A stretch of 64,000 nt of DNA from Sphingopyxis sp. (GTDB lineage Bacteria; Pseudomonadota; Alphaproteobacteria; Sphingomonadales; Sphingomonadaceae), in NCBI RefSeq assembly GCF_035250425.1, contig NZ_DATFFD010000011.1:5990-69989 (forward strand), read 5' to 3'. Numbering within the stretch: position 1 is the stretch's first letter; each line of letters begins with the position of its first letter. A program made the position numbers and the translations under genes. Shown here piece after piece: positions 1-56,604 of this stretch. A model generated the notes under the pieces. That model did not search any database. It had not been told where the DNA came from and saw only the letters and a list, made by a program, of their open reading frames with translations.

Positions 1-1756
1 CCTTATAGGAAGGGCACATGGCGTCATGGGTATCCCAGCTGAAGCAGGCTCCATTGCCATTGCAGGCGATTGCGCGATCAAACTCCTGCTTCAACGCCTC
101 GTCGATGCGGGCGTCGAGCGTTCCTCTGAAGGGTATCGCGTCGATGCGGTCGATCGCGTCTCCCCCCGGGGGGCTCGCGAGCTTTCCGGGATTGAGCAGG
201 CCCGCAGGATCGAAAGCGCGCTTGATATTCTGCAATTCGGCATAAAGGGTGGGTCCGAAGAAAAATGGCGAATACTCTCCCCGAAAGCCGCGGCCGTGCT
301 CGCCCCATAGGAGCCCGCCGTGCGCTTTCGTCAGGGCAGCTATCTCGTCGGACAGCGGGCGAATGAGCGCGGCCTGTGCCGGGTCCTTCATGTCGATGAA
401 CGGGCGCACATGGAGGCATCCGACGTCGGCATGGCCAAACATGCCGTATTTGAGACCGTATCTGTCGAGGGTGCCGCGAAACCTGGCGACGAATTCCGGG
501 AGCCGTTCTGGCGGAACCGCCGTGTCCTCGACGAACGGGATGCCTTGGCCGCCGCCTCCGATCCTCGCCAGCAGGCCTACGGATTTTTCGCGGAGACGCC
601 ACAAGCCGGCGATGGTTTCCAGGTCGCGGACGATCTTAATGTCGATCTGTTCGGACGGGGCGGCCTGTGCAAGTCCCGCGAGCAGGGCAAGCCCATTCTC
701 GACTTCGCCGGCTGAACCAGCGAACTCGACGAAGCTGATCGCCTTCGTAAGCGCGTCCGGATCGTCTCCAAGCACGGTCTCGATGCCGTTCCAAACAACG
801 TCGGATTGCGCGACGCCGATAACCTTGTCGTCGATGATTTCGATGGCAACCGGGTCGGCGTCGAGGAGGCGCGCCACGTCTCGAAGCCCGGTTTCAAATC
901 CGCTGTAGCGCACGACCGCAAGCGCCTTCGCTCGGGGCTTGGGAATGGCCCGCAGCGTGACCGCCTTGGTTACCGCCAGCGTCCCTTCCGAGCCCGCGAG
1001 GAGAGAGCCGAGGAAAAAGCGGTCGAGCGGCTCCTCGTACACCTTCTGAAGATTATATCCGGTGAGACCCCGGTTCATCTCTGGAAAGACGCGGGCAATC
1101 TCGTCCGCTTGCTCGCGCACGACACGCAGGACCTCGCGGTGGATATTGCCGACCATATCCACGGTGGCCCCCAACTCCTCGGCCCTAGCGGCGGTCATGG
1201 GTTCGGCTGTCCAATCCTCGCCGTTGGACAGGACCAGTTCGACGGCTTCGACATAATCCGACGTCTTGCCGTAGCGCCGCGACCCCTTGCCCGAGGCATC
1301 GGTGCCGACCATCCCGCCGATCGTGGCCCGGCTGGCCGTCGAGACCATGGGCGGGAAGAACAATCCCCGTTCGGAAAGCGCGGCATTGAGCTGATCAAGG
1401 ACCACGCCAGGTTCGACCCGGACGCGGGCACCCGTCTCGTCGCTTTCGACGGAAATGATCCGGTTCATATGGCGAGCGAAATCGACGATGAGGCCGCGGC
1501 TCAGCGATTGCCCGTTGGTGCCTGTGTTGCCGCCCCGCGCGCAGATGGGCACGCCCGCGCGTGCAGCCTCGCGGACGATCCGGTTGATGTCCTCGCCCGA
1601 CCGCGGATAGGCGACGGCGAGCGGGAGAAGATGATAGATTGAATTGTCGGTCGCCGCGACTTCGCGAGCGCCAGCTCCTGTTTCCAGGTCGCCCAAAAAT
1701 CCCGAGCCTGCGAGCGCGTCGGCGAACTTGGCGAAACGGAGATCGTCGGGCCTCAC
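1..1756 (-). CDS. ydiJ: FAD-binding/Fe-S oxidoreductase, D-2-hydroxyglutarate dehydrogenase family (3' part runs off the window)
   Basis: Not in the ORF track (no stop inside the window). Manual translation from GTG 1756 gives VRPDDLRFAKF...ATDNSIYHLLP...ARGGNTGTNGQSL...TIGGMVGTDASG...GSEGTL...FGHADVGCLHVRP...WGEHGRG...CNGNGAC...MCPSYK. The GTG overlaps the upstream TGA (GTGA). Confidence 0.88.
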   Translation of the reverse strand, partial: MRPDDLRFAKFADALAGSGFLGDLETGAGAREVAATDNSIYHLLPLAVAYPRSGEDINRIVREAARAGVPICARGGNTGTNGQSLSRGLIVDFARHMNRIISVESDETGARVRVEPGVVLDQLNAALSERGLFFPPMVSTASRATIGGMVGTDASGKGSRRYGKTSDYVEAVELVLSNGEDWTAEPMTAARAEELGATVDMVGNIHREVLRVVREQADEIARVFPEMNRGLTGYNLQKVYEEPLDRFFLGSLLAGSEGTLAVTKAVTLRAIPKPRAKALAVVRYSGFETGLRDVARLLDADPVAIEIIDDKVIGVAQSDVVWNGIETVLGDDPDALTKAISFVEFAGSAGEVENGLALLAGLAQAAPSEQIDIKIVRDLETIAGLWRLREKSVGLLARIGGGGQGIPFVEDTAVPPERLPEFVARFRGTLDRYGLKYGMFGHADVGCLHVRPFIDMKDPAQAALIRPLSDEIAALTKAHGGLLWGEHGRGFRGEYSPFFFGPTLYAELQNIKRAFDPAGLLNPGKLASPPGGDAIDRIDAIPFRGTLDARIDEALKQEFDRAIACNGNGACFSWDTHDAMCPSYK

Positions 1757-3138
1757 GCGTCGGCGCGCCCGAGCGCCATTCGCCGAGCCTGCGAAAGCTT
1801 CCGGCGGACCTGCTCGATCGATTGTTGCTGTCGTTCCGCATAGAGTTCGAAAGGATCGGCGACGGGGGTGCCGAGTATCGCTTCGAACGCTAACTGTGCA
1901 GCCGCAGCCGAATAGGACTTCGGCCCTTGATCGCCGAGATTCGATTGGAATATCCCCGCCGCGCTCACCGGCAGGAAATCTTCATAAGTGATGGGAAAAG
2001 CGTCGACGAGACCGGCGGCAACCAGGGATTCCACATCGTCAGGTTCATAGCCGTTGATTTCAGCGGTGCTCGAAAGACGATATTCGAAATAGCCGAGGCC
2101 CTCCCGCCGAAGGGTGCAGAGATCGTCGGGAAAACGCTCGAACGCTGAAGAGAGCCGGGCGTCATACGCTTTCGGTTCTTCGCGCGCCTCGGCGAGCAGT
2201 TCGTCATACAGCTGGCGCCCCTTCGGGGTCAGCGCCATGCCCCGCTGCTCGATTTCCCCGAACCTTGCCGTATGCGTACCGCTTTGCGTCTTGTTCCCGT
2301 CCACGAAGCGCACAGGTTCATCGAGCGCTTTGAAGCTCGTCTGGCGCAGCAGAATCGGATGGGCGCGTGCCGGCGGTCCCTCGATTAGGTCCTTGGCCTG
2401 CATGCCCCGGGCGAGCATCTTGCGTTGCGCTGCGTCGATGTCGAGTGTGCGCGGTGTGAGATGATTAATGTGCGGCCCGTTAAAGCAGACGATATCCGCG
2501 ACCAAGCGATGCGCATTATGAAGCCGATTGTAGAGCGCGACGTCGACATTTACCTCGCTATGCCAGCGAAATATCTCGAGGGCGCTGGCAACGAACAGAC
2601 GCGCCTCGCTCTCGTCGAGGCCGCCCTCATGCTCGAACTTCTCGATCAGTGAGATCGTTGCCTCCGGAAAAATCCGGCGAGCGGCGAGCCGGCGGTCGAT
2701 TTCGTCTCTGATATCGGCATCGTCGATCAGTTCGGGCCGAAGCAGCGAGGTGAAGATGCGAAACGGGTTTTTGTTCAGCTTTCCCGGACGCAGGGGCCGG
2801 AAAGCAGTCGCGTGAACCGGCACACCGGCCATCGTCAAATCATAATAGCCTACAGGGTACATGCCCATGACCGCGAAAAGGCGCCGCATCATTGCGAGTT
2901 CGTCGGGGCGCCCCAACCGGATTGCACCATGATATTCTTGAGACAATCTTGCGAGTTCGTCGTGCCGTGCAAGTTCGAATGTCATCGCTGGCTTCGCTTC
3001 GAGAACCTCGCTGTTCACGGCGTCGACGATTTCAAGCAGGGTGCCGTAGAGGGGAACTTCCTCGCGGTACATTGCCGACATCGCATTCGCGAAAAGGCTC
3101 CGGATGAAATCATCCTGGACCAGATTGGAATAAGGCAT
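1753..3138 (-). CDS. hglS: 2-oxoadipate dioxygenase/decarboxylase (DUF1338/YdcJ/HglS family)
   Basis: MSAMYREEVPLY, HGAIRLG, YYDL..AGVPVHATAFRP, NPFRIFTSLLR, GPHINHLTPRTLDID, LRQTSF, HTARFGEIEQRG and YEDFLPVSAAGIFQSNL motifs. Start re-set to MPYSNL at 3138. Confidence 0.9.
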   Translation of the reverse strand: MPYSNLVQDDFIRSLFANAMSAMYREEVPLYGTLLEIVDAVNSEVLEAKPAMTFELARHDELARLSQEYHGAIRLGRPDELAMMRRLFAVMGMYPVGYYDLTMAGVPVHATAFRPLRPGKLNKNPFRIFTSLLRPELIDDADIRDEIDRRLAARRIFPEATISLIEKFEHEGGLDESEARLFVASALEIFRWHSEVNVDVALYNRLHNAHRLVADIVCFNGPHINHLTPRTLDIDAAQRKMLARGMQAKDLIEGPPARAHPILLRQTSFKALDEPVRFVDGNKTQSGTHTARFGEIEQRGMALTPKGRQLYDELLAEAREEPKAYDARLSSAFERFPDDLCTLRREGLGYFEYRLSSTAEINGYEPDDVESLVAAGLVDAFPITYEDFLPVSAAGIFQSNLGDQGPKSYSAAAAQLAFEAILGTPVADPFELYAERQQQSIEQVRRKLSQARRMALGRADA

Positions 3139-3233
3139 GTCCGTCCTGTCTCGGGTTTGCGGCACGTTGAGTGTCCGGGATACAGGCCTTCTAGCGCGGC
3201 GGACTCGAGTACTAAAATCAAGAATCCGACGCA

Positions 3234-3256
3234 TCTTATTCCGAACCGGAATAAGA
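3234..3256. promoter_or_regulatory. 23-bp inverted repeat, probable LysR binding site
   Basis: TCTTATTCCG-AAC-CGGAATAAGA (perfect 10-bp arms, contains T-N11-A), about 100 bp upstream of the hglS start. Confidence 0.65.
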
Positions 3257-3362
3257 AAGGCGCGCGGCGGTGGTGCCGCGCCCTCGCGCGCCAGCGGGTT
3301 AGCGGCCGGAAGCGCTACGGGATAACTGCACCGACCGGCCCGCGCGGCGGGGAGTCTTTCCC

Positions 3363-4523
3363 TTAAAGCTGCGGGCAGATCACGTAGTTGGTGAAGCCGC
3401 CGCATCCGAAGTTGAGTTCCGAAAGCGCGGTGTTCAGTCCTTCGAGCGGAAAGACCTTGGTGTCGAACATGTCGAAGGTGACTCGCCCCATTGCGGCCAG
3501 ATCGGCCATTTCCTGGCCCTGCGCTGTCGAAAACCAGAGCGAGCCTATGAGGGTTTGTGCCTCGTTGACGAGCATGAGCATATTGAGCGGGACCGGTTCT
3601 AAGACACCACCGACATTGACGTGCGTACCGCCTTTTGCAAGCCCGCCGAACGCATCGAGGTAGGCGGCTGCCGACGATCCTGTCGAAAGTGCGTCGATCA
3701 CGACGTTGGCGCCTTCTCCCCCCGTCAGCGCGCGCACGCGCTCGCTAATCGATCCCTCCCCGGCACAGAGGACATCGATCCGGTCGGGTGCGAGCGCCTT
3801 CACCCGTTCGAGAAGCTCCGGGTTGCGACCGACCCCGAAAATTCTGGGGGCCCCCATCGCCAACGCGAACAAGGCCGCGCCGAGACCGAGCGTTCCCGAT
3901 ACGCCGTTGATCAGCACCGTGGTGTTGACATCGACGTTACCTGCCCGAACCGCGCCATAGCCCGTACCGAGATATCCCCACCGCGCTCCGACCTCGAACG
4001 GTACGTTCGGCGGGAGCTTGACGATGCTTTCTTGCGGCGCGACCATGAATTCCGCGAAGCCGCCATAGGGATAATCCGCGAGTGTCTGCGCGGATTTCGG
4101 GCCGAAGCCGAAATAATTGCTGAGCGCGCCATAATCGCAAGCGGTAGGTTGCCCGCGCCGGCAGGCGCGGCAGCTTCCGCAATAGCGCAGGGGGTTGGCA
4201 TAGACACGGTCACCGATTTCGAGCCCGTGCACGAGACATCCCTTCTCGACGATGACGCCTGCAGGGTCGAGACCGTAGATGGCCGGGAGTGTCGGCGCGG
4301 AAATGGCGGGATGGTCTCTGAGCTTCTCGAGTACCGTCGCGTAATTGGGCACAAGGCCGCAGGCGTGGACCTGAACCACAACCTCGTGCGGTCGAGGCGA
4401 TGGCCGATCGATCACATCCACCGAAAAGGGAGCGCCGACGCGATGATATCGGGCCGCTCGCATCGTCTCGTGCACCGCGGTCCCGACGCGATCGCCGTCG
4501 ATTTCCGCCATGTCGATGCTCAT
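3363..4523 (-). CDS. MDR-superfamily (Zn alcohol dehydrogenase-like) oxidoreductase with atypical active site
   Basis: Structural-Zn CGSCRAC...C, Rossmann INGVSGTLG; HACGLVPN and YGLDPAG replace the usual CHxD and GHE. Strong RBS GAGGAGG. Confidence 0.85.
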   Translation of the reverse strand: MSIDMAEIDGDRVGTAVHETMRAARYHRVGAPFSVDVIDRPSPRPHEVVVQVHACGLVPNYATVLEKLRDHPAISAPTLPAIYGLDPAGVIVEKGCLVHGLEIGDRVYANPLRYCGSCRACRRGQPTACDYGALSNYFGFGPKSAQTLADYPYGGFAEFMVAPQESIVKLPPNVPFEVGARWGYLGTGYGAVRAGNVDVNTTVLINGVSGTLGLGAALFALAMGAPRIFGVGRNPELLERVKALAPDRIDVLCAGEGSISERVRALTGGEGANVVIDALSTGSSAAAYLDAFGGLAKGGTHVNVGGVLEPVPLNMLMLVNEAQTLIGSLWFSTAQGQEMADLAAMGRVTFDMFDTKVFPLEGLNTALSELNFGCGGFTNYVICPQL

Positions 4524-5682: not shown

Positions 5683-5748
5683 ATAGCATGACTAAATTCC
5701 GCATGGCCGGACGCTCCGCCACTGGTGCTGCTGGCGGGGAGTCAGGTT

Positions 5749-6714
5749 ATGAAATTCGTCCTTTTTGGAAGTGACGGACGGCTCGGTGTGCTGGACGGCT
5801 CGCGCATTCTCGATCTCGACCGGGCAGCCCGTCGGCGCTCGCAGCCGTTCGAGGCGTTCTCGACCCTCGTGCAATTGATCGAAACCGGAGATCGCGGGCT
5901 CGACGAGGCGCGGACATTGCTCGAGCATTTTGCGGCGAGCGATGATCCTGAGATTTTCACGGCGCTCGATGCGGCGTATCTTCATGCCCCTTTCCCGGGG
6001 CGTCGCCTGGCGTTGGCCGGCAGCAACAACGCAGACCATGTATCGCGAGGGCGGACAAACATGGGCCGGCCTGCAACGCCGGAGGACGTGCGCGAACGGA
6101 CCCGGGAGGGGCTTGGAGGCGGCTTCTGGTCGGTTTCCATCCCCGCTGCGCCGGGCGCCGACATTCCATATCCGCGGTCTTCGCACGGACTCTTCGATTT
6201 CGAGGGCGAGGTGGCAATCGTTCTGGCGCGTGGCGGCAAAGGGGTGCCGGCCGAAGGCTGGAAGGAGCGCGTCTGGGGCAGCACCCTGCTGATCGACTGG
6301 AGCGTACGCAATCACGACTTGCTGTCGAACAAGCGGCCTTTCTACGCACATAAGGTCTTCGACAATTCGAAATCAATCGGACCGTGGATCGCGGTCGATG
6401 AAGTCGATCCGGAAGATTGCATCGTCGAAACGCGGGTGAACGGAGAGCTGCGCCAGAAGTTCAACAGCGGCAACATGATCCACAGCTATGCCGAATTGCT
6501 CGCGCAGATCAGCGAGGACCTGACATTGCTTCCCGGCGATATGCTGTCGGGCGGAACCGGTCCGGGAACCGCCGCTGATAGCACCGTACCAGAGCCGGAC
6601 GGGAAACTGCCCCTCGATCTGTTCTTGCGCGTCGGCGATGAGGTCGAGGTTTCGGCCTCGGGCTTGGGGAGGCTTTCGGCGACGATAGTGGCTTATGATG
6701 GCCCTGTCGGCTAG
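5749..6714 (+). CDS. Fumarylacetoacetate hydrolase family protein
   Basis: DFEGEVAIVL, IDWSVR, HKVFDNS.SIGPW, LLPGDMLSGGTGPG motifs. Start re-set to MKFV. Confidence 0.88.
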   Translation: MKFVLFGSDGRLGVLDGSRILDLDRAARRRSQPFEAFSTLVQLIETGDRGLDEARTLLEHFAASDDPEIFTALDAAYLHAPFPGRRLALAGSNNADHVSRGRTNMGRPATPEDVRERTREGLGGGFWSVSIPAAPGADIPYPRSSHGLFDFEGEVAIVLARGGKGVPAEGWKERVWGSTLLIDWSVRNHDLLSNKRPFYAHKVFDNSKSIGPWIAVDEVDPEDCIVETRVNGELRQKFNSGNMIHSYAELLAQISEDLTLLPGDMLSGGTGPGTAADSTVPEPDGKLPLDLFLRVGDEVEVSASGLGRLSATIVAYDGPVG

Positions 6715-6731: not shown

Positions 6732-7640
6732 ATGTTCCCGAGACGATTGCTGCCAGCGACGAGCTTGCTCGCGGCTTTCGATGCCGTTGCGCGCCATTTG
6801 AGCTTCAGCGCAGCGGCCGACGAGCTGCAACTGACGCAGAGCGCGGTCAGCCGGCAGATCAAGGTCCTCGAGGATCAGCTGGGCTGTCTCCTGTTCGTGA
6901 GGGACCGCCGCAAGGTGATGCTGAGCGACGCGGGCGCAGCCTATCACCGAGAGGTTAAGCCGATCCTGGCAGCCCTGTTTCGAGCCACACTTGAAATCAC
7001 GACAAATCGCGCCGGCGGGTCGCTCGACTTGGCTATCCTGCCGACATTCGGAACGCGCTGGCTCGCGCCGCGCCTCGGCCACTTTCTTGCCGATAATCCC
7101 GGGGTCACGATCAATCTTTGTACACGGCTCAACGTCTTTGACTTTCATTTCGAGTCGATCGACGCCGCAATTCATTTCGGCCTGCCCGAATGGCCGGGCG
7201 CCGGGCTCGACTATCTAATGGGAGAACAGGTTATCCCGGTCTGTTCGCCCGCGCTGCGGCGCGAGGCAGGTTTCGCCGAGCCCGGCGACCTTCTGCGTGC
7301 GCCGCTCATTCATCTGGTGTCTCGCCCCCGTGCCTGGATGAACTGGTTCGGCTCGATGCAGGTCCGGGCCGGGCAGATCGACGGGCTGATGATCGACCAG
7401 TTCGCGACAGCTGCTCAGGCGGTTGCCGGGGGCGTCGGGGTGGCACTCATGCCGACCTTCCTGATTGCCGCGGAACTCGGGCGCGGGGAGCTGGTACCTG
7501 CAGTCGATGTCGAGCCGATCGCTGGCGAGGAAAGCTATTATCTTGCCTGGCCAAAAGCCCGGACCTCGCATCAGCCCCTGGCGGCATTCAGGGCTTGGCT
7601 CGTCGAGGAAGCTACGCGGTTCCGCAGCGGGGCGCCCTGA
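6732..7640 (+). CDS. LysR-family regulator (GcvA-like)
   Basis: FDAVARHLSFSAAADELQLTQSAVSRQIKVLE HTH; LPTFGTRWLAPRL. Confidence 0.92.
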   Translation: MFPRRLLPATSLLAAFDAVARHLSFSAAADELQLTQSAVSRQIKVLEDQLGCLLFVRDRRKVMLSDAGAAYHREVKPILAALFRATLEITTNRAGGSLDLAILPTFGTRWLAPRLGHFLADNPGVTINLCTRLNVFDFHFESIDAAIHFGLPEWPGAGLDYLMGEQVIPVCSPALRREAGFAEPGDLLRAPLIHLVSRPRAWMNWFGSMQVRAGQIDGLMIDQFATAAQAVAGGVGVALMPTFLIAAELGRGELVPAVDVEPIAGEESYYLAWPKARTSHQPLAAFRAWLVEEATRFRSGAP

Positions 7641-7740: not shown

Positions 7741-7753
7741 ATTGTCCTACAAG
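7741..7753. promoter_or_regulatory. Module A operator
   Basis: ATTGTCCTACAAG, 12/13, just upstream of the enoyl-CoA hydratase operon. Confidence 0.7.
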
Positions 7754-7771
7754 AACATAGGGAGTGGATTG

Positions 7772-8554
7772 GTGAGCGAAGGACGCATTTCCGTGTCGTC
7801 GGCCGGCGGCGTGACGACGATCACTATCGACAATGCCGAGCGCATGAACGCGATATCGCTCGCCATGTGGCAGCAGCTAGGGGCCGCTGTCGCGCAGATC
7901 GACGCACAGACGCGATGCGTGGTCGTAACCGGGGCGGGTGGCCGGGCATTTGCATCGGGGGCCGATATTTCTGAGTTCAAGGCGCTTCGACGCCAGCCAG
8001 CGGCGCGCGAGGAATATGACAAGGCCGCTTATGAGGCGATGACCAGCCTCTATGCGCTGCCGCAACCCACGATCGCGCACATCTCGGGCTATTGTATCGG
8101 TGCTGGAATGGCGTTGGCGCTGTGCTGCGACGTCCGTCTTGCCACCGATCGCAGCCTGTTCGCAATTCCTGCGGGGCGTCTCGGGCTCGGCTACGGGCCC
8201 GCAGAGATCAAGCGTCTGATGGATGCCGTCGGCGTTGCGACAGCATCCGATATCCTTCTCAGCGCGCGGCGATACGACGCCGCCGAGGCGCTCGCAAAGG
8301 GACTCGTGACGCGGTTGTTCGCCGCAGATAAGATCGCCGAGGAGGCTGCCAGCTACGCCGCGTCCGTTGCGAAAAACGCTCCGATGACCATTCAGGCCGC
8401 CAAGCGCGTGATCAAGGAACTGGCCGTCACAAGTGACACGGCTGACATGGCGCTTTGCGAGGATCTCACCGATCGCTGCTTTGCAAGCGCAGACTATATC
8501 GAGGGCATCAATGCGTTTCTCGAGAAGCGCCAGCCCGATTTCAAAGGGGAATGA
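7772..8554 (+). CDS. Enoyl-CoA hydratase/isomerase family protein
   Basis: ERMNAISL, GRAFASGADISEF, GYCIGAGMALALCCD. GTG start at 7772 after GGAG. Confidence 0.88.
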   Translation: MSEGRISVSSAGGVTTITIDNAERMNAISLAMWQQLGAAVAQIDAQTRCVVVTGAGGRAFASGADISEFKALRRQPAAREEYDKAAYEAMTSLYALPQPTIAHISGYCIGAGMALALCCDVRLATDRSLFAIPAGRLGLGYGPAEIKRLMDAVGVATASDILLSARRYDAAEALAKGLVTRLFAADKIAEEAASYAASVAKNAPMTIQAAKRVIKELAVTSDTADMALCEDLTDRCFASADYIEGINAFLEKRQPDFKGE

Positions 8555-9732
8555 AGATGGGCGATCTGCCTCTGTCGCACCTCAAGGTCCTGGATCTTTC
8601 CCGGGTCCGCGCCGGTCCGACGTGCGTAAAGTTCTTCGGCGACTTCGGCGCGGATGTGATCAAGATCGAACGAACCGACGGGGAGGGCGACCCGATGGGG
8701 GACAATCGGCTTTCGTCGGATTATGTGAACGCGCAGCGCAACAAGCGCGGCATCACGCTGGATCTGAAGACGCCCGAGGGGGTAGAGGTCCTGAAGCGAC
8801 TAGTGAAGGATGCTGATATCCTCGTCGAGAATTTCCGTCCCGACGTGAAGTTTCGTCTCGGCATCGACTATGAATCGATGGCCGCCGTGAACGAGCGCCT
8901 CATTTACACCTCGATCTCGGCATTCGGCGAAAGCGGCCCATATCGTACAAGGCCGGGCTTCGATCTGATCGCCCAGGGAATGGGCGGGCTGATGTGGCTG
9001 ACCGGCTACCAGGATCGGGGGCCGCTTCGGGTGGGTATCTCGCCGGCCGACCTTTGCGCCGGTATCTTCGCGGCTATGGGGACGTTCGTCGCGCTTCAGG
9101 AGCGCGAGCGTTCGGGCAAGGGGCAATGGGTCCAGAGCAGCCTGCTGGCCTCGCAGATCATGATGCTCGACTATCAGGCGATGAGCTGGTTGATGGACAA
9201 GCGCATTCCGCTGCAACGCGGCAATGACCATCCGCAAATCGTGCCGACCGGCGTATATGAAGCGAGCGACGGCTATTTCACGCTCTCTACCGTGGGCAAT
9301 GACAGCTACCTGCGGCTTTGCAAAGCCATCGGCGCCCCCGAACTCGGCGCGGACCCGCGGTTTGTGGATGCTCCGACGCGCGAACGCAATCGCGACGAGA
9401 TGAACCATCTCATCAACCGGGCAACGCAGAAGAAGACGGCCGTCGAATGGGTCGAGATACTGAACGAAGCGGGTGTGCCGGCCGGACCGATCTACAAGCT
9501 CGACGAAATGTTCGATGATCCGCAGGTCAAGGAAACGGGGATCGTGCAGCCGCTCGATCATCCCGATCTCGGGACGGTCGAAATACTCGGCCAGCCGATC
9601 GGACTGAGCCGCACGCCGGCGCAATTCCTGCGGCCGCCGCCACGTCTCGGCGAGCACACCGACGAAGTTCTGACCGAAGCGGGCTTTGAAGCGCGAGAAA
9701 TTGCATCGCTTCGCGACAGGGGCGTGATCTGA
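8551..9732 (+). CDS. Family III (CaiB/BaiF) CoA-transferase
   Basis: LKVLDLSRVRAGP, GADVIKIE, RNKRGITLDLK, ADILVENFRP, GFDLIAQGMGGLM. ATGA overlap with the upstream gene (alternative start 8557). Confidence 0.9.
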   Translation: MKMGDLPLSHLKVLDLSRVRAGPTCVKFFGDFGADVIKIERTDGEGDPMGDNRLSSDYVNAQRNKRGITLDLKTPEGVEVLKRLVKDADILVENFRPDVKFRLGIDYESMAAVNERLIYTSISAFGESGPYRTRPGFDLIAQGMGGLMWLTGYQDRGPLRVGISPADLCAGIFAAMGTFVALQERERSGKGQWVQSSLLASQIMMLDYQAMSWLMDKRIPLQRGNDHPQIVPTGVYEASDGYFTLSTVGNDSYLRLCKAIGAPELGADPRFVDAPTRERNRDEMNHLINRATQKKTAVEWVEILNEAGVPAGPIYKLDEMFDDPQVKETGIVQPLDHPDLGTVEILGQPIGLSRTPAQFLRPPPRLGEHTDEVLTEAGFEAREIASLRDRGVI

Positions 9733-14311: not shown

Positions 14312-15280
14312 TTACGGGGCCGTGATACGGCTTACGAGGGATCCGATGCCTTCGCCCTTGATCTCGACCTCATCGCCGGGCTTCAGGAAAAGGTCGACAG
14401 GCCAGCTGCGATCGGCATTCGGCTTTGTCTGGTCGATCGCCGTTCCGGCTCCCGTACCGCCGGCGATCACATCGCCCGGAAAGAAGGTGAAATCGCGAGA
14501 ATAATATTCCAGGATTTCGGCGAAGGAATAGATCATCTCGTTCGAACTGAAATGCTGTCTCACTGTACCGTTGACGATGGTGGACAGCATGAAATCGTCG
14601 GCATCGACCTCCCCGACGACGATGCAGGGACCAATTGACTTCGAGCAGTCGAAATTCTTCACCGGCATGAAAGGAGGGTTGGGCTTGGGAGGCCATTCGG
14701 GAATCCGGATGCTCCAGTCCGCCACGAGGGTCACGCCCCAGACATAGGCAGCACCGTCGCTGGCCTTGATGTCCTTGCCCTGCTTGCCGAGGATAATGCC
14801 CGGCTCCGCCTCGAAATCGAAATAGCCGTTCGCGCGCTTCGGAATCTGGATATCGGCATCGGGTCCCATGATTGGGCGAGCTTGGCCCCAGAAACCGGAC
14901 GGCGGCAAGGCGCGGCCTTTCTCCCGGGCCTCTTCGACCGTGAGCGCATCGCCCATGTTTGTGAAGGCTTCCGACTGGTGCGAGGGGTTATTGCTGCCGG
15001 CGAGGAAGAACCGCTGCCCGGGCCAGGGGGCGTTGAGACTGGTTTCGGCGGCGTCGAGCCAAAGCGAGGGCTGGTCGGCCCCCGCGAGTTTGTCGGCGAG
15101 ACGGCCAACGATGTCGAGCCCGTGCGAACCCGACTCGATCAAGCCCTGAAGCGAGCCGAAGGTGGCGACCCAAGCGTCGCCGCCCAGCGTATGCGCGCCA
15201 GCGGCGATCGCAAGATCGAGGATACGGTCATTCACGAGCAGCCCGACGCGGTTCCGTGGCCCAAATGTAACGAATTTCAT
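14312..15280 (-). CDS. FAH family protein, paralogue of 5749-6714
   Basis: MKFVTFG, LAGSNN, DFEAEPGIILG, ADWSIR, KNFDCS.SIGP, PGDVIAGGTGAG. Confidence 0.88.
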   Translation of the reverse strand: MKFVTFGPRNRVGLLVNDRILDLAIAAGAHTLGGDAWVATFGSLQGLIESGSHGLDIVGRLADKLAGADQPSLWLDAAETSLNAPWPGQRFFLAGSNNPSHQSEAFTNMGDALTVEEAREKGRALPPSGFWGQARPIMGPDADIQIPKRANGYFDFEAEPGIILGKQGKDIKASDGAAYVWGVTLVADWSIRIPEWPPKPNPPFMPVKNFDCSKSIGPCIVVGEVDADDFMLSTIVNGTVRQHFSSNEMIYSFAEILEYYSRDFTFFPGDVIAGGTGAGTAIDQTKPNADRSWPVDLFLKPGDEVEIKGEGIGSLVSRITAP

Positions 15281-15394
15281 TGGCTGTCTCTCCCTTGGCC
15301 GCGACCTCGTTTCTGGTGCGCTGGCTGTCAAACATTGGCCCGGAGCTGTTGCCCGAGCGTTATGGGCATATTAGGCCGACGATGCTATTGCAAG

Positions 15395-19636: not shown

Positions 19637-20809
19637 ATGAGCCAGATTGAACCAGAAAGACGCGACTTTCGCGATTCCAAAACGCGTGTACCCGCGATGC
19701 GTGCCGCACGCCTTCACGACAGGCTTCAGCCGCTGCGCATCGACTCGGTCGAACGGCCGTCCCCGCGGCCTAACGACGTCCTCGTCGAAATTCATGCCTG
19801 CGGCGTGGTTCCCAATGTGCTGAATGTGCTGAATTACAGCGACGATTTTATCGCGGTCCAGCCACCCAAGCCTGCCATTTTCGGCCTAGATGTCGGCGGA
19901 ATCGTCGTCAAGAAAGGCGATCTGGTTCACGGTTTCGAAATCGGGGACCGCGTCTATGTCAATCCCGCCAGATACTGCGGCACGTGTCATCATTGCCGGA
20001 GGGACCACCCGTTCGCCTGTGATTCCTACACGTTGAACGGCTACTTCGGTCTCGCGCCGAAATCCGCCCAGATGTTTCGCGACTACCCCTACGGCGGTTA
20101 CGCAGAATATATGACGGCGCCGGGTTACAGCTTGGTGAGGCTGGCGGACGGCATCGATTTCTCCCTCGCCGCGCGGTGGGGGTATCTTGGAACGGCCTAT
20201 GCGGCGCTTCAGCGCGCGCATTTCACGCCTTTCGACACCCTCCTCATCAACGGCGTCTCCGGAACGCTCGGTATAGGCGGGGTCCTATTCGGTCTTGCCA
20301 TGGGGGCAACCCGCATTCTCGGCGCCGGCCGCGATCCCGATCTCCTCGCACGCGTTAAAGCGATAGCACCGGACCGGATCGAGGTTTTCTCGACTAATGA
20401 GGACACTCCACTCGCCCAATGGGTCTTTTCCCGAACCGGAGGATATGGCGCGGACGTTGTCCTGGACGCGCTTGCGCCCGAGGCGAGCATCGAAGCTTTT
20501 GAAGCCGGCATCGATTCCCTCGCGAAATACGGGCGCCACGTCAATTGTGGGGGCATTTTGCAGCGTGCGTCCTTCGACACGCCACGCGTGATGGTGAGCT
20601 CGCAGTCGATATTGGGATCGAACTGGTTCACGAGCGCACAGGCGCGCGAAATGATGGAACTCGCGCAAGCCGGTCGCGTGGATCTGTCGATATTCGATCA
20701 TCATGGCTTTGCGCTCGATGACATTAACGAAGCGCTCGCGGCGGTCGAACGGCGCGCGGGGGGCTTCTCGAACTATTTCGTCACGCCGCAATCGGGAGTG
20801 GGGGCATGA
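19637..20809 (+). CDS. MDR-superfamily oxidoreductase, paralogue of 3363-4523
   Basis: HACGVVPN, FGLDVGG, CGTCHHC...C, RWGYLGT, INGVSGTLG. Confidence 0.85.
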   Translation: MSQIEPERRDFRDSKTRVPAMRAARLHDRLQPLRIDSVERPSPRPNDVLVEIHACGVVPNVLNVLNYSDDFIAVQPPKPAIFGLDVGGIVVKKGDLVHGFEIGDRVYVNPARYCGTCHHCRRDHPFACDSYTLNGYFGLAPKSAQMFRDYPYGGYAEYMTAPGYSLVRLADGIDFSLAARWGYLGTAYAALQRAHFTPFDTLLINGVSGTLGIGGVLFGLAMGATRILGAGRDPDLLARVKAIAPDRIEVFSTNEDTPLAQWVFSRTGGYGADVVLDALAPEASIEAFEAGIDSLAKYGRHVNCGGILQRASFDTPRVMVSSQSILGSNWFTSAQAREMMELAQAGRVDLSIFDHHGFALDDINEALAAVERRAGGFSNYFVTPQSGVGA

Positions 20810-55761: not shown

Positions 55762-56604
55762 ATGCACACTCATGCAAATCGCATCCACGCAAAGCCGCTT
55801 TCTGCATCGCTGGGCGTAGAGATTCTTGGCTTGAATCCGAAACATCTGTCGGAGGAGGAAAAGGGCGCGATCAAGCTTCTTTTCGACAATCATCATTTCG
55901 TGCTATTTCGCAATGCCGATGTCACCGAGGAGGAGCATGTGTCGCTGGTGCGGGCTATTGGGCCGATTTCCACGGCGGACGAGATCATGAAAGACGGTCG
56001 GCAGTTCACTTATATCTCGAACGTTCATGCCGATGGGCGCGTCCCGAACGGCGAGCTCTTCTATCATTCGGACCATATGTTTCTGGACGAACCGCTGAAG
56101 GGGATTTCGCTTTATTCGATCGAGGCGCCTCGAGTTGGCGGCGAAACGCGGTTCCTGAATTCCGCCAAGGCCTATCAGGCGATGCCGGACGATCTGAAGA
56201 AGCGAGTTGAAGGCCTGTCCGCTCGCCACGTCTACGATTATGACGCGAACCGCGGCGATCAGCGTCCCGATCCCGCCACGCTGAGTGCGAATACCGACAT
56301 GGCAGTCTATCCTCTCGTTTGGCGCCACCCGGTAAGTGATGTGCCGCTCCTCTATATCAGCCGACTGTTCACCATCGAGGTTCTTGGACTTTCGCGCGAG
56401 GAAAGCGAAAAACTTCTGGACGACCTGTTCGCTTACCTCGACACGATCGGCGACGACTATACCCACAAATGGGCGAGCGGAGATCTCATTGTCTGGGACA
56501 ATCTTCATTTGCAACATGCCCGTAACGACTTCCCACACACCGAGCGTCGGGCTTTGCGCCGCGTGCCGATTGCGCTTGAGGCGGCCTACCAGCATTCGGG
56601 ATAA
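55762..56604 (+). CDS. TauD/TfdA-family Fe(II)/2-oxoglutarate dioxygenase
   Basis: YHSD (HxD), GGETRF, GDLIVWDN..LQHAR, R.LRR. Confidence 0.92.
   Translation: MHTHANRIHAKPLSASLGVEILGLNPKHLSEEEKGAIKLLFDNHHFVLFRNADVTEEEHVSLVRAIGPISTADEIMKDGRQFTYISNVHADGRVPNGELFYHSDHMFLDEPLKGISLYSIEAPRVGGETRFLNSAKAYQAMPDDLKKRVEGLSARHVYDYDANRGDQRPDPATLSANTDMAVYPLVWRHPVSDVPLLYISRLFTIEVLGLSREESEKLLDDLFAYLDTIGDDYTHKWASGDLIVWDNLHLQHARNDFPHTERRALRRVPIALEAAYQHSG

Follow-up and report, generated by a model that had tools for sequence, protein, structure and literature searches.

An overlapping hglS and ydiJ-type gene pair beside an aromatic island in Sphingopyxis sp.: a probable two-gene operon of lysine, pipecolate or 2-aminoadipate catabolism

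A 64,000-nucleotide stretch of a Sphingopyxis sp. genome (positions 5990-69989 of contig C11, NZ_DATFFD010000011.1; hereafter, the window) carries at its left end two overlapping genes, hglS, for a predicted 2-oxoadipate dioxygenase/decarboxylase (hydroxyglutarate synthase), and ydiJ, for a D-2-hydroxyglutarate dehydrogenase (D2HGDH) of the YdiJ type, next to an aromatic catabolic island. Does this pair serve the island, as a preliminary description of the window had proposed, or is it a unit of its own that happens to lie there? We consider it likely that hglS-ydiJ is a self-contained operon encoding the two final steps of lysine/pipecolate/2-aminoadipate catabolism. This reading is built on gene identities, conserved residues, the overlap of the two genes, orthology of a regulator, recurrence of an operator-like box and neighbourhood associations, from which we infer the enzyme activities, the pairing of regulator and operator, the inducer and the source of 2-oxoadipate. 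In the proposed scheme, HglS, dependent on Fe(II) and O2, would carry out the oxidative decarboxylation and hydroxylation of 2-oxoadipate to D-2-hydroxyglutarate (D-2-HG) and CO2, and the coupled YdiJ-type flavo-iron-sulfur dehydrogenase would oxidize D-2-HG to 2-oxoglutarate, with the electrons probably passing to the quinone pool.

The hglS open reading frame in its longest form lies at the window's left end, on the minus strand, and spans 1753..3405. We place the start at the ATG at 3138, where Met1 pairs with Met1 of Pseudomonas putida HglS in the alignment; the 550-aa form starting at 3405 was rejected because it would cross the hairpin and the palindrome described below and because homologues align from the ATG at 3138. 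The encoded protein covers the Pfam HGLS model (PF07063) from position 1 to 386 of 386 (523.3 bits, cut-off 25) and lies above the cut-off of the NCBIfam HglS equivalog NF049974 (661.7 bits vs 550). Its best match in PDB is 2RJB, a YdcJ-type structure (488 bits), and P. putida HglS, 6W1G, aligns over the full length (478 bits). In the P. putida enzyme, H70, H226 and E294 form the His-His-Glu Fe(II) triad, Arg74 and a loop with Val402/Ser403 bind the distal carboxylate and set the specificity for 2-oxoadipate, and 2-oxoadipate was the only one of seven 2-oxoacids to be accepted (PMC7286885). The triad is kept here as H70, H226 and the Glu of FGEIEQ, with the motifs HGAIR, HINH and FGEIEQ identical to those of 6W1G; R74 and the Pro-Val-Ser loop are kept as well, and FLPVSAAGIFQSNLG is identical in the 6W1G alignment. 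The gene is thus correctly named hglS, with Fe(II)/O2-dependent formation of D-2-HG from 2-oxoadipate as its predicted activity.

The stop codon of hglS (TGA, 1755-1753) overlaps the start codon of ydiJ (GTG, 1756-1754) in a GTGA motif through which the two genes may be translationally coupled; the GTG start is supported by homologues that align from residue 3-8 of the ydiJ product. Profiles, residues and the overlap as read in the sequence all bear out the preliminary description on this point, which had reported GTGA-coupled DUF1338/HglS and YdiJ genes, and it was also right that YdiJ is missing from the ordinary list of open reading frames: the gene runs 1,178 bp past the left end of the window and is therefore not listed, but is complete in the contig (C11 4812-7745; 977 aa). 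The full-length protein joins FAD_binding_4 and FAD-oxidase_C domains (the GlcD part) to a 4Fe-4S dicluster domain (Fer4_8), and residues 627-839 are GlpC-like. Eleven of its cysteines (C565, C571, C581, C635, C638, C641, C645, C875, CC906-907 and C949), including those of a CxxCxxCxxxC and a CC(G) motif, do not vary among 15 homologues. YdiJ is by far the top NCBIfam family of the full-length protein (1018.9 bits; the runner-up, GlcD, scores 172.9); the N-terminal 612 residues hold most of this score, and the C-terminal half has diverged to 31-38% identity to homologues. Judging from the overlap with hglS and by analogy with PP_4493 of P. putida and YdiJ of Escherichia coli, the protein would oxidize D-2-HG to 2-oxoglutarate.

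Where does this unit begin and end? On the 3' side of ydiJ, the contig carries a convergent gene for a TonB-dependent receptor, an MDR oxidoreductase gene and the end of an S9 peptidase gene before it stops. Inspection of the sequence left of the window, which the preliminary description had advised, thus met a convergent receptor gene and no lysine genes continuing the operon; the operon ends with ydiJ and is a two-gene unit. The spacer upstream of hglS is 224 bp long. It contains a terminator-like hairpin following the upstream MDR dehydrogenase gene and a perfect palindrome, the core of which, ATTC-N7-GAAT, is a box of the T-N11-A type located 96-118 nt upstream of the hglS ATG. Transcription would most likely start between the palindrome and this ATG. 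A co-regulation search found no further copies of the palindrome in the window or in the whole 3.9-Mb assembly, so that it is not among the operators common to the operons of the island.

The gene for a GcvA-like LysR-type regulator lies 3.6 kb from hglS, in divergent orientation and with three genes in between, while the box is present at hglS. For comparison, we examined 80 hglS loci, the best matches among GTDB species genomes, from hosts that include Stenotrophomonas, Rhizobiaceae, Phyllobacterium, Azospirillum and Halomonas; their HglS proteins are only 54-60% identical. In about 50 of these loci, a LysR gene is located directly beside hglS, mostly divergent, with 40-57% identity to the LysR of the window. 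The LysRs from Azospirillum and from an alphaproteobacterium of another family (G184) have the window's LysR as their best match in this genome (53-56%, runner-up 30%), and these matches are reciprocal. Within the family to which the window belongs, the closest orthologue (62%, genome G014) is divergent from amaA-amaB, and its gene has ATTC-N7-GAAC at its start. Although the exact palindrome of the window occurs in none of the 80 other loci, 33 of the 37 intergenic regions between divergent LysR and hglS genes contain ATTC-N7-GAAT with at most one mismatch (shuffles predict 1.8), a count taken over related genomes in which many boxes overlap the LysR start codon; in G184, hglS is preceded by a perfect palindrome, ATCATTC-N7-GAATGAT. 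Given the orthology of the LysRs and the recurrence of the box at hglS and amaAB loci, hglS-ydiJ is probably regulated by this LysR, with the palindrome as the probable operator. The protein would probably act as an activator, with 2-aminoadipate, 2-oxoadipate or D-2-HG as the likely co-inducer.

The surroundings of hglS in the same 80 loci, counted within 8 kb, lead to lysine catabolism. The gene for L-piperidine-6-carboxylate dehydrogenase, amaB, is found beside hglS in 29 loci (a representative scores 819 bits, cut-off 730), an AmaA-like pipecolate oxidase in 14, and a 2-aminoadipate transaminase in nine (728 bits, cut-off 650), a lysine/pipecolate setting that Thompson et al. (10.1101/450254) had reported before. 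A ydiJ gene accompanies hglS in 13 loci, in various orders, and in 12 loci a GlcD-only, D2HGDH-like gene directly follows, so that a D2HGDH of either type is paired with hglS in 25/80. This latter gene, directly 3' of hglS, encodes a GlcD-only FAD oxidase of about 470 aa, probably of the classical D2HGDH type (for example, L038:9415-10836), and many hglS homologues have been reported to adjoin 'glycolate dehydrogenase' genes (Thompson et al., 10.1101/450254). The observed pairings suggest two interchangeable D-2-HG dehydrogenase partners for HglS. The coordinates of the features at the locus are collected in Table 1.

Table 1. Features of the hglS-ydiJ locus and its probable regulator (window coordinates)
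Feature	Position	Strand	Remarks
ydiJ-type D-2-hydroxyglutarate dehydrogenase, first 585 codons	2..1756	-	FAD_binding_4 + FAD-oxidase_C; open at the left end of the window
GTGA start/stop overlap of hglS and ydiJ	1753..1756	-	read directly
hglS, 2-oxoadipate dioxygenase/decarboxylase (hydroxyglutarate synthase), 461 aa	1753..3138	-	Pfam and NCBIfam profiles, PDB alignment
AGGA, Shine-Dalgarno-like	3144..3147	-	5 nt ahead of the hglS ATG, read in the sequence
Perfect palindrome TCTTATTCCG-N3-CGGAATAAGA	3234..3256		10-nt arms, 100% complementary; probable LysR-type operator
Terminator-like GC hairpin	3262..3281	-	7 GC pairs, T-rich tail; after the upstream MDR dehydrogenase gene
GcvA-like LysR-type regulator	6732..7640	+	HTH_1 + LysR_substrate

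If the operon completes lysine catabolism, its substrate has to be made elsewhere in the genome. The window holds no lysine-pathway genes, as had been noted before: tblastn with amaA, amaB and the aminoadipate transaminase gave matches on other contigs only. An AmaB equivalog is encoded on one of these (C196; 786.9 bits, cut-off 730) and is 73% identical to the amaB product of a Rhizobium hglS cluster; the genes around it are unrelated, with none for lysine among them. It is plausible that 2-oxoadipate comes from 2-aminoadipate, and its source is only partly explained. Most likely, the unlinked AmaB would supply 2-aminoadipate to a transaminase; uptake of external 2-aminoadipate is the alternative to entry from lysine.

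Several candidates for the preceding steps were dismissed. An AmaA-like oxidase on contig C63, the best AmaA match of the genome, was rejected as a pipecolate oxidase, since it lies in a putrescine-type cluster. That cluster (C63:21700-30386) comprises an AptA omega-aminotransferase above the cut-off, the AmaA/PuuB-like FAD oxidase, Pot-type permeases and a glutamine-synthetase-like gene resembling gamma-glutamylputrescine synthetase. The genome matches to Sacchrp_dh, LAT and AlaDh_PNT, considered as lysine-entry enzymes, turned out to be carboxynorspermidine synthase, an SDR, alanine dehydrogenase and generic transaminases. The sole remaining candidate for a lysine-side enzyme is a 398-aa, SCCPDH-like protein of the saccharopine dehydrogenase family (C12:7315-8508; PF03435, 39.7 bits; no NCBIfam match).

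How common the pair is among relatives was assessed in 150 genomes of the window's own family. Ten of these have hglS; none, the same-genus genome included, has a gene of the YdiJ type; and in the family genomes with hglS, the 9 kb on either side of this gene are free of ydiJ, of amaA/amaB orthologues and of close LysR orthologues. On account of these counts and of hglS loci that lack ydiJ and the LysR, we regard the hglS-ydiJ operon as an accessory module, probably acquired horizontally and probably together with its LysR. When the first 29 kb of the contig were searched for, as DNA, in the sole genome of the same genus, no match was returned, hence no breakpoints could be mapped.

The location of the pair next to the island calls for an explanation of its own. 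The three genes between hglS and LysR encode an MDR dehydrogenase (3363-4523), a GntR/FCD regulator and an FAH-family protein (5725-6714). The MDR gene is 49% identical to an island gene at 19637-20809 and the FAH gene 45% identical to another at 14312-15331, and it follows from this paralogy that the island grew into the LysR/hglS divergon. The position beside the island, with three genes wedged between a regulator and its target, is thus best read as genomic mosaicism. The interleaving is also the sole real argument for a functional link between the pair and the island.

Such a link was proposed in the preliminary description, in which the pair may act as a sink for a C6 2-oxo-diacid made by the island. 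The diacid could be, for instance, 2-oxoadipate formed when the unusual MDR enzyme encoded directly upstream reduces 2-hydroxymuconate/4-oxalocrotonate. We found no support for this recruitment of the pair and consider it very unlikely, even though the pair physically adjoins the island, the MDR gene lies directly upstream of hglS on the same strand, and the two island paralogues separate hglS from its regulator. The P. putida enzyme shows strict specificity for 2-oxoadipate (PMC7286885), and the residues that confer this specificity are those retained here. Neither the hairpin nor the operator of hglS occurs anywhere else in the window, and orthologues of the LysR, together with the box, accompany hglS or amaAB in organisms that have no such island. 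In 89 other hglS loci, no island-type gene (MDR, FAH or other homologue) was found nearby, save for one MDR match of 26%. The island enzymes include aklavinone-hydroxylase-like flavin monooxygenases, a VanA-like Rieske oxygenase, a bicupin protein, hydrolases and FAHs; none lies above the cut-off of a named family, let alone one known to yield 2-oxoadipate. The further suggestion that HglS replenishes 2-oxoglutarate as the co-substrate of a TauD enzyme is empty, given that the TauD-like gene (55762-56604) lies 52 kb from hglS and that 2-oxoglutarate is a central metabolite. In a more elaborate version, the pair and the LysR would both be wired into the island, LysR being co-transcribed with the FAH gene and the atypical MDR enzyme reducing a ring-cleavage product of the 4-oxalocrotonate/2-hydroxymuconate type to 2-oxoadipate; we hold this to be highly improbable. 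Were it true, a C6 diacid from ring fission would enter the tricarboxylic acid cycle via D-2-HG, a route not described for aromatic catabolism.

A different reading makes the module mainly one of D-2-HG salvage or detoxification, in which YdiJ removes D-2-HG that is imported or made by SerA, with HglS as its partner in a minor or different role. E. coli YdiJ, characterized as a D2HGDH, indeed recycles D-2-HG made by SerA (PMC9504171; PMC12297413), and ydiJ of P. putida is activated by a LysR-type D-2-HG sensor, HgcR (PMC12297413). Moreover, a profile search of the genome found no second gene of the YdiJ type and only a GlcD-like gene, 33% identical. Yet expression of ydiJ is tied to that of hglS by the 4-nt overlap of start and stop codons, the recurrent pairing of hglS with a D2HGDH of either type points the same way, and orthologues of the LysR also flank amaA-amaB, which acts upstream of D-2-HG in the pathway. 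Salvage as the main role therefore seems very unlikely to us.

The assignment to lysine, pipecolate or 2-aminoadipate catabolism has its own difficulties, which weigh against it and part of which would favour recruitment by the island. The genome did not yield a full set of enzymes leading from lysine to aminoadipate semialdehyde: in profile searches, the matches to AmaA, LAT, LKR/saccharopine dehydrogenase and the aminoadipate transaminase equivalog all fall below the cut-offs (best AmaA match, 151.9 bits vs 600; best transaminase match, 217 vs 650), in a draft of 314 contigs that is 94.8% complete, so that absence of the lysine-entry genes is not shown. In the family sample, AmaB is present in 15 of the 150 genomes, none of them among the ten with hglS, and only the window's genome has both. 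The YdiJ score is below the curated cut-off of the equivalog NF049975 (1350 bits), which E. coli YdiJ passed in a control search, and for this reason we call the protein YdiJ-type and not an equivalog. Hairpin matches like the one upstream of hglS are, taken alone, no commoner than in shuffles, and read-through into hglS from the MDR gene is possible. Finally, LysR is not adjacent to hglS and starts only 17 bp past the FAH stop codon, so that it may be co-transcribed with this island gene. With all this taken into account, a self-contained operon acting at the end of lysine/pipecolate/2-aminoadipate catabolism continues to be the likely reading.

Two observations concern the far side of the divergon. 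LysR, so close to the FAH gene, may have lost a promoter of its own. Directly beyond it (7742-9732) lie an enoyl-CoA hydratase gene (PRK06127 subfamily, above the cut-off) and a gene for a family III CoA-transferase, the best NCBIfam match of which, succinate-glutarate CoA-transferase, scores 319.9 bits, far under the cut-off of 750; a link of these genes to glutarate or lysine catabolism is possible.

With the pair, the bacterium would have a route from 2-oxoadipate to 2-oxoglutarate that is independent of CoA and that most sampled members of the family lack. Beyond correct annotation, the finding matters little, except that a conserved LysR/hglS divergon split by three island-type genes offers a simple test case for regulatory rewiring by insertions. 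If the island did feed 2-oxoadipate into the pair, products of aromatic ring cleavage would have a new outlet; the evidence argues against it.

Comparison with known systems places the locus among relatives with the same enzymes in different arrangements. E. coli has both families as YdcJ (the 2RJB homologue) and YdiJ, encoded by unlinked genes; YdiJ serves there in the recycling of SerA-derived D-2-HG (PMC9504171), YdcJ has no demonstrated part in lysine catabolism, and evidence for its role is scant according to Thompson et al. (10.1101/450254). The chemistry that the preliminary description took as established for both organisms is accordingly established for P. putida but not for E. coli. 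Among 400 sampled genomes of the class, one, G184, has hglS followed by ydiJ as in the window, with identities of 56% for HglS, 51-54% for YdiJ and 57% for LysR. Its cluster (G184:C9) comprises hglS-ydiJ-amaB, an amaA-like gene and LysR, the amaB being 74% identical to that of Rhizobium; it thus retains the lysine-side genes that the window locus lacks, leaves a short gap between hglS and ydiJ where the window has the GTGA overlap, and does not have the three genes, island paralogues among them, that separate LysR from hglS in the window. The conversion of 2-oxoadipate to 2-oxoglutarate via D-2-HG has been demonstrated for PP_5260 and PP_4493 of P. putida (10.1101/450254; PMC7286885; PMC12297413), and the D-lysine catabolism of strain KT2440 employs the same two enzyme families, HglS (PP_5260, YdcJ family, PDB 6W1G/6W1H) and YdiJ (PP_4493). 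The YdiJ proteins share the GlcD plus GlpC-like architecture, although that of the window has a diverged C-terminal half and falls, as a whole, under the NCBIfam cut-off, and both P. putida genes have LysR-type regulators associated with them (for ydiJ, see PMC12297413). The P. putida genes are unlinked, hglS lying by amaA/amaB and ydiJ by hgcR, whereas those of the window overlap in one operon, with amaB on another contig and no amaA equivalog found. Notwithstanding these differences, the hglS-ydiJ pair of the window is an ordinary member of this known system.

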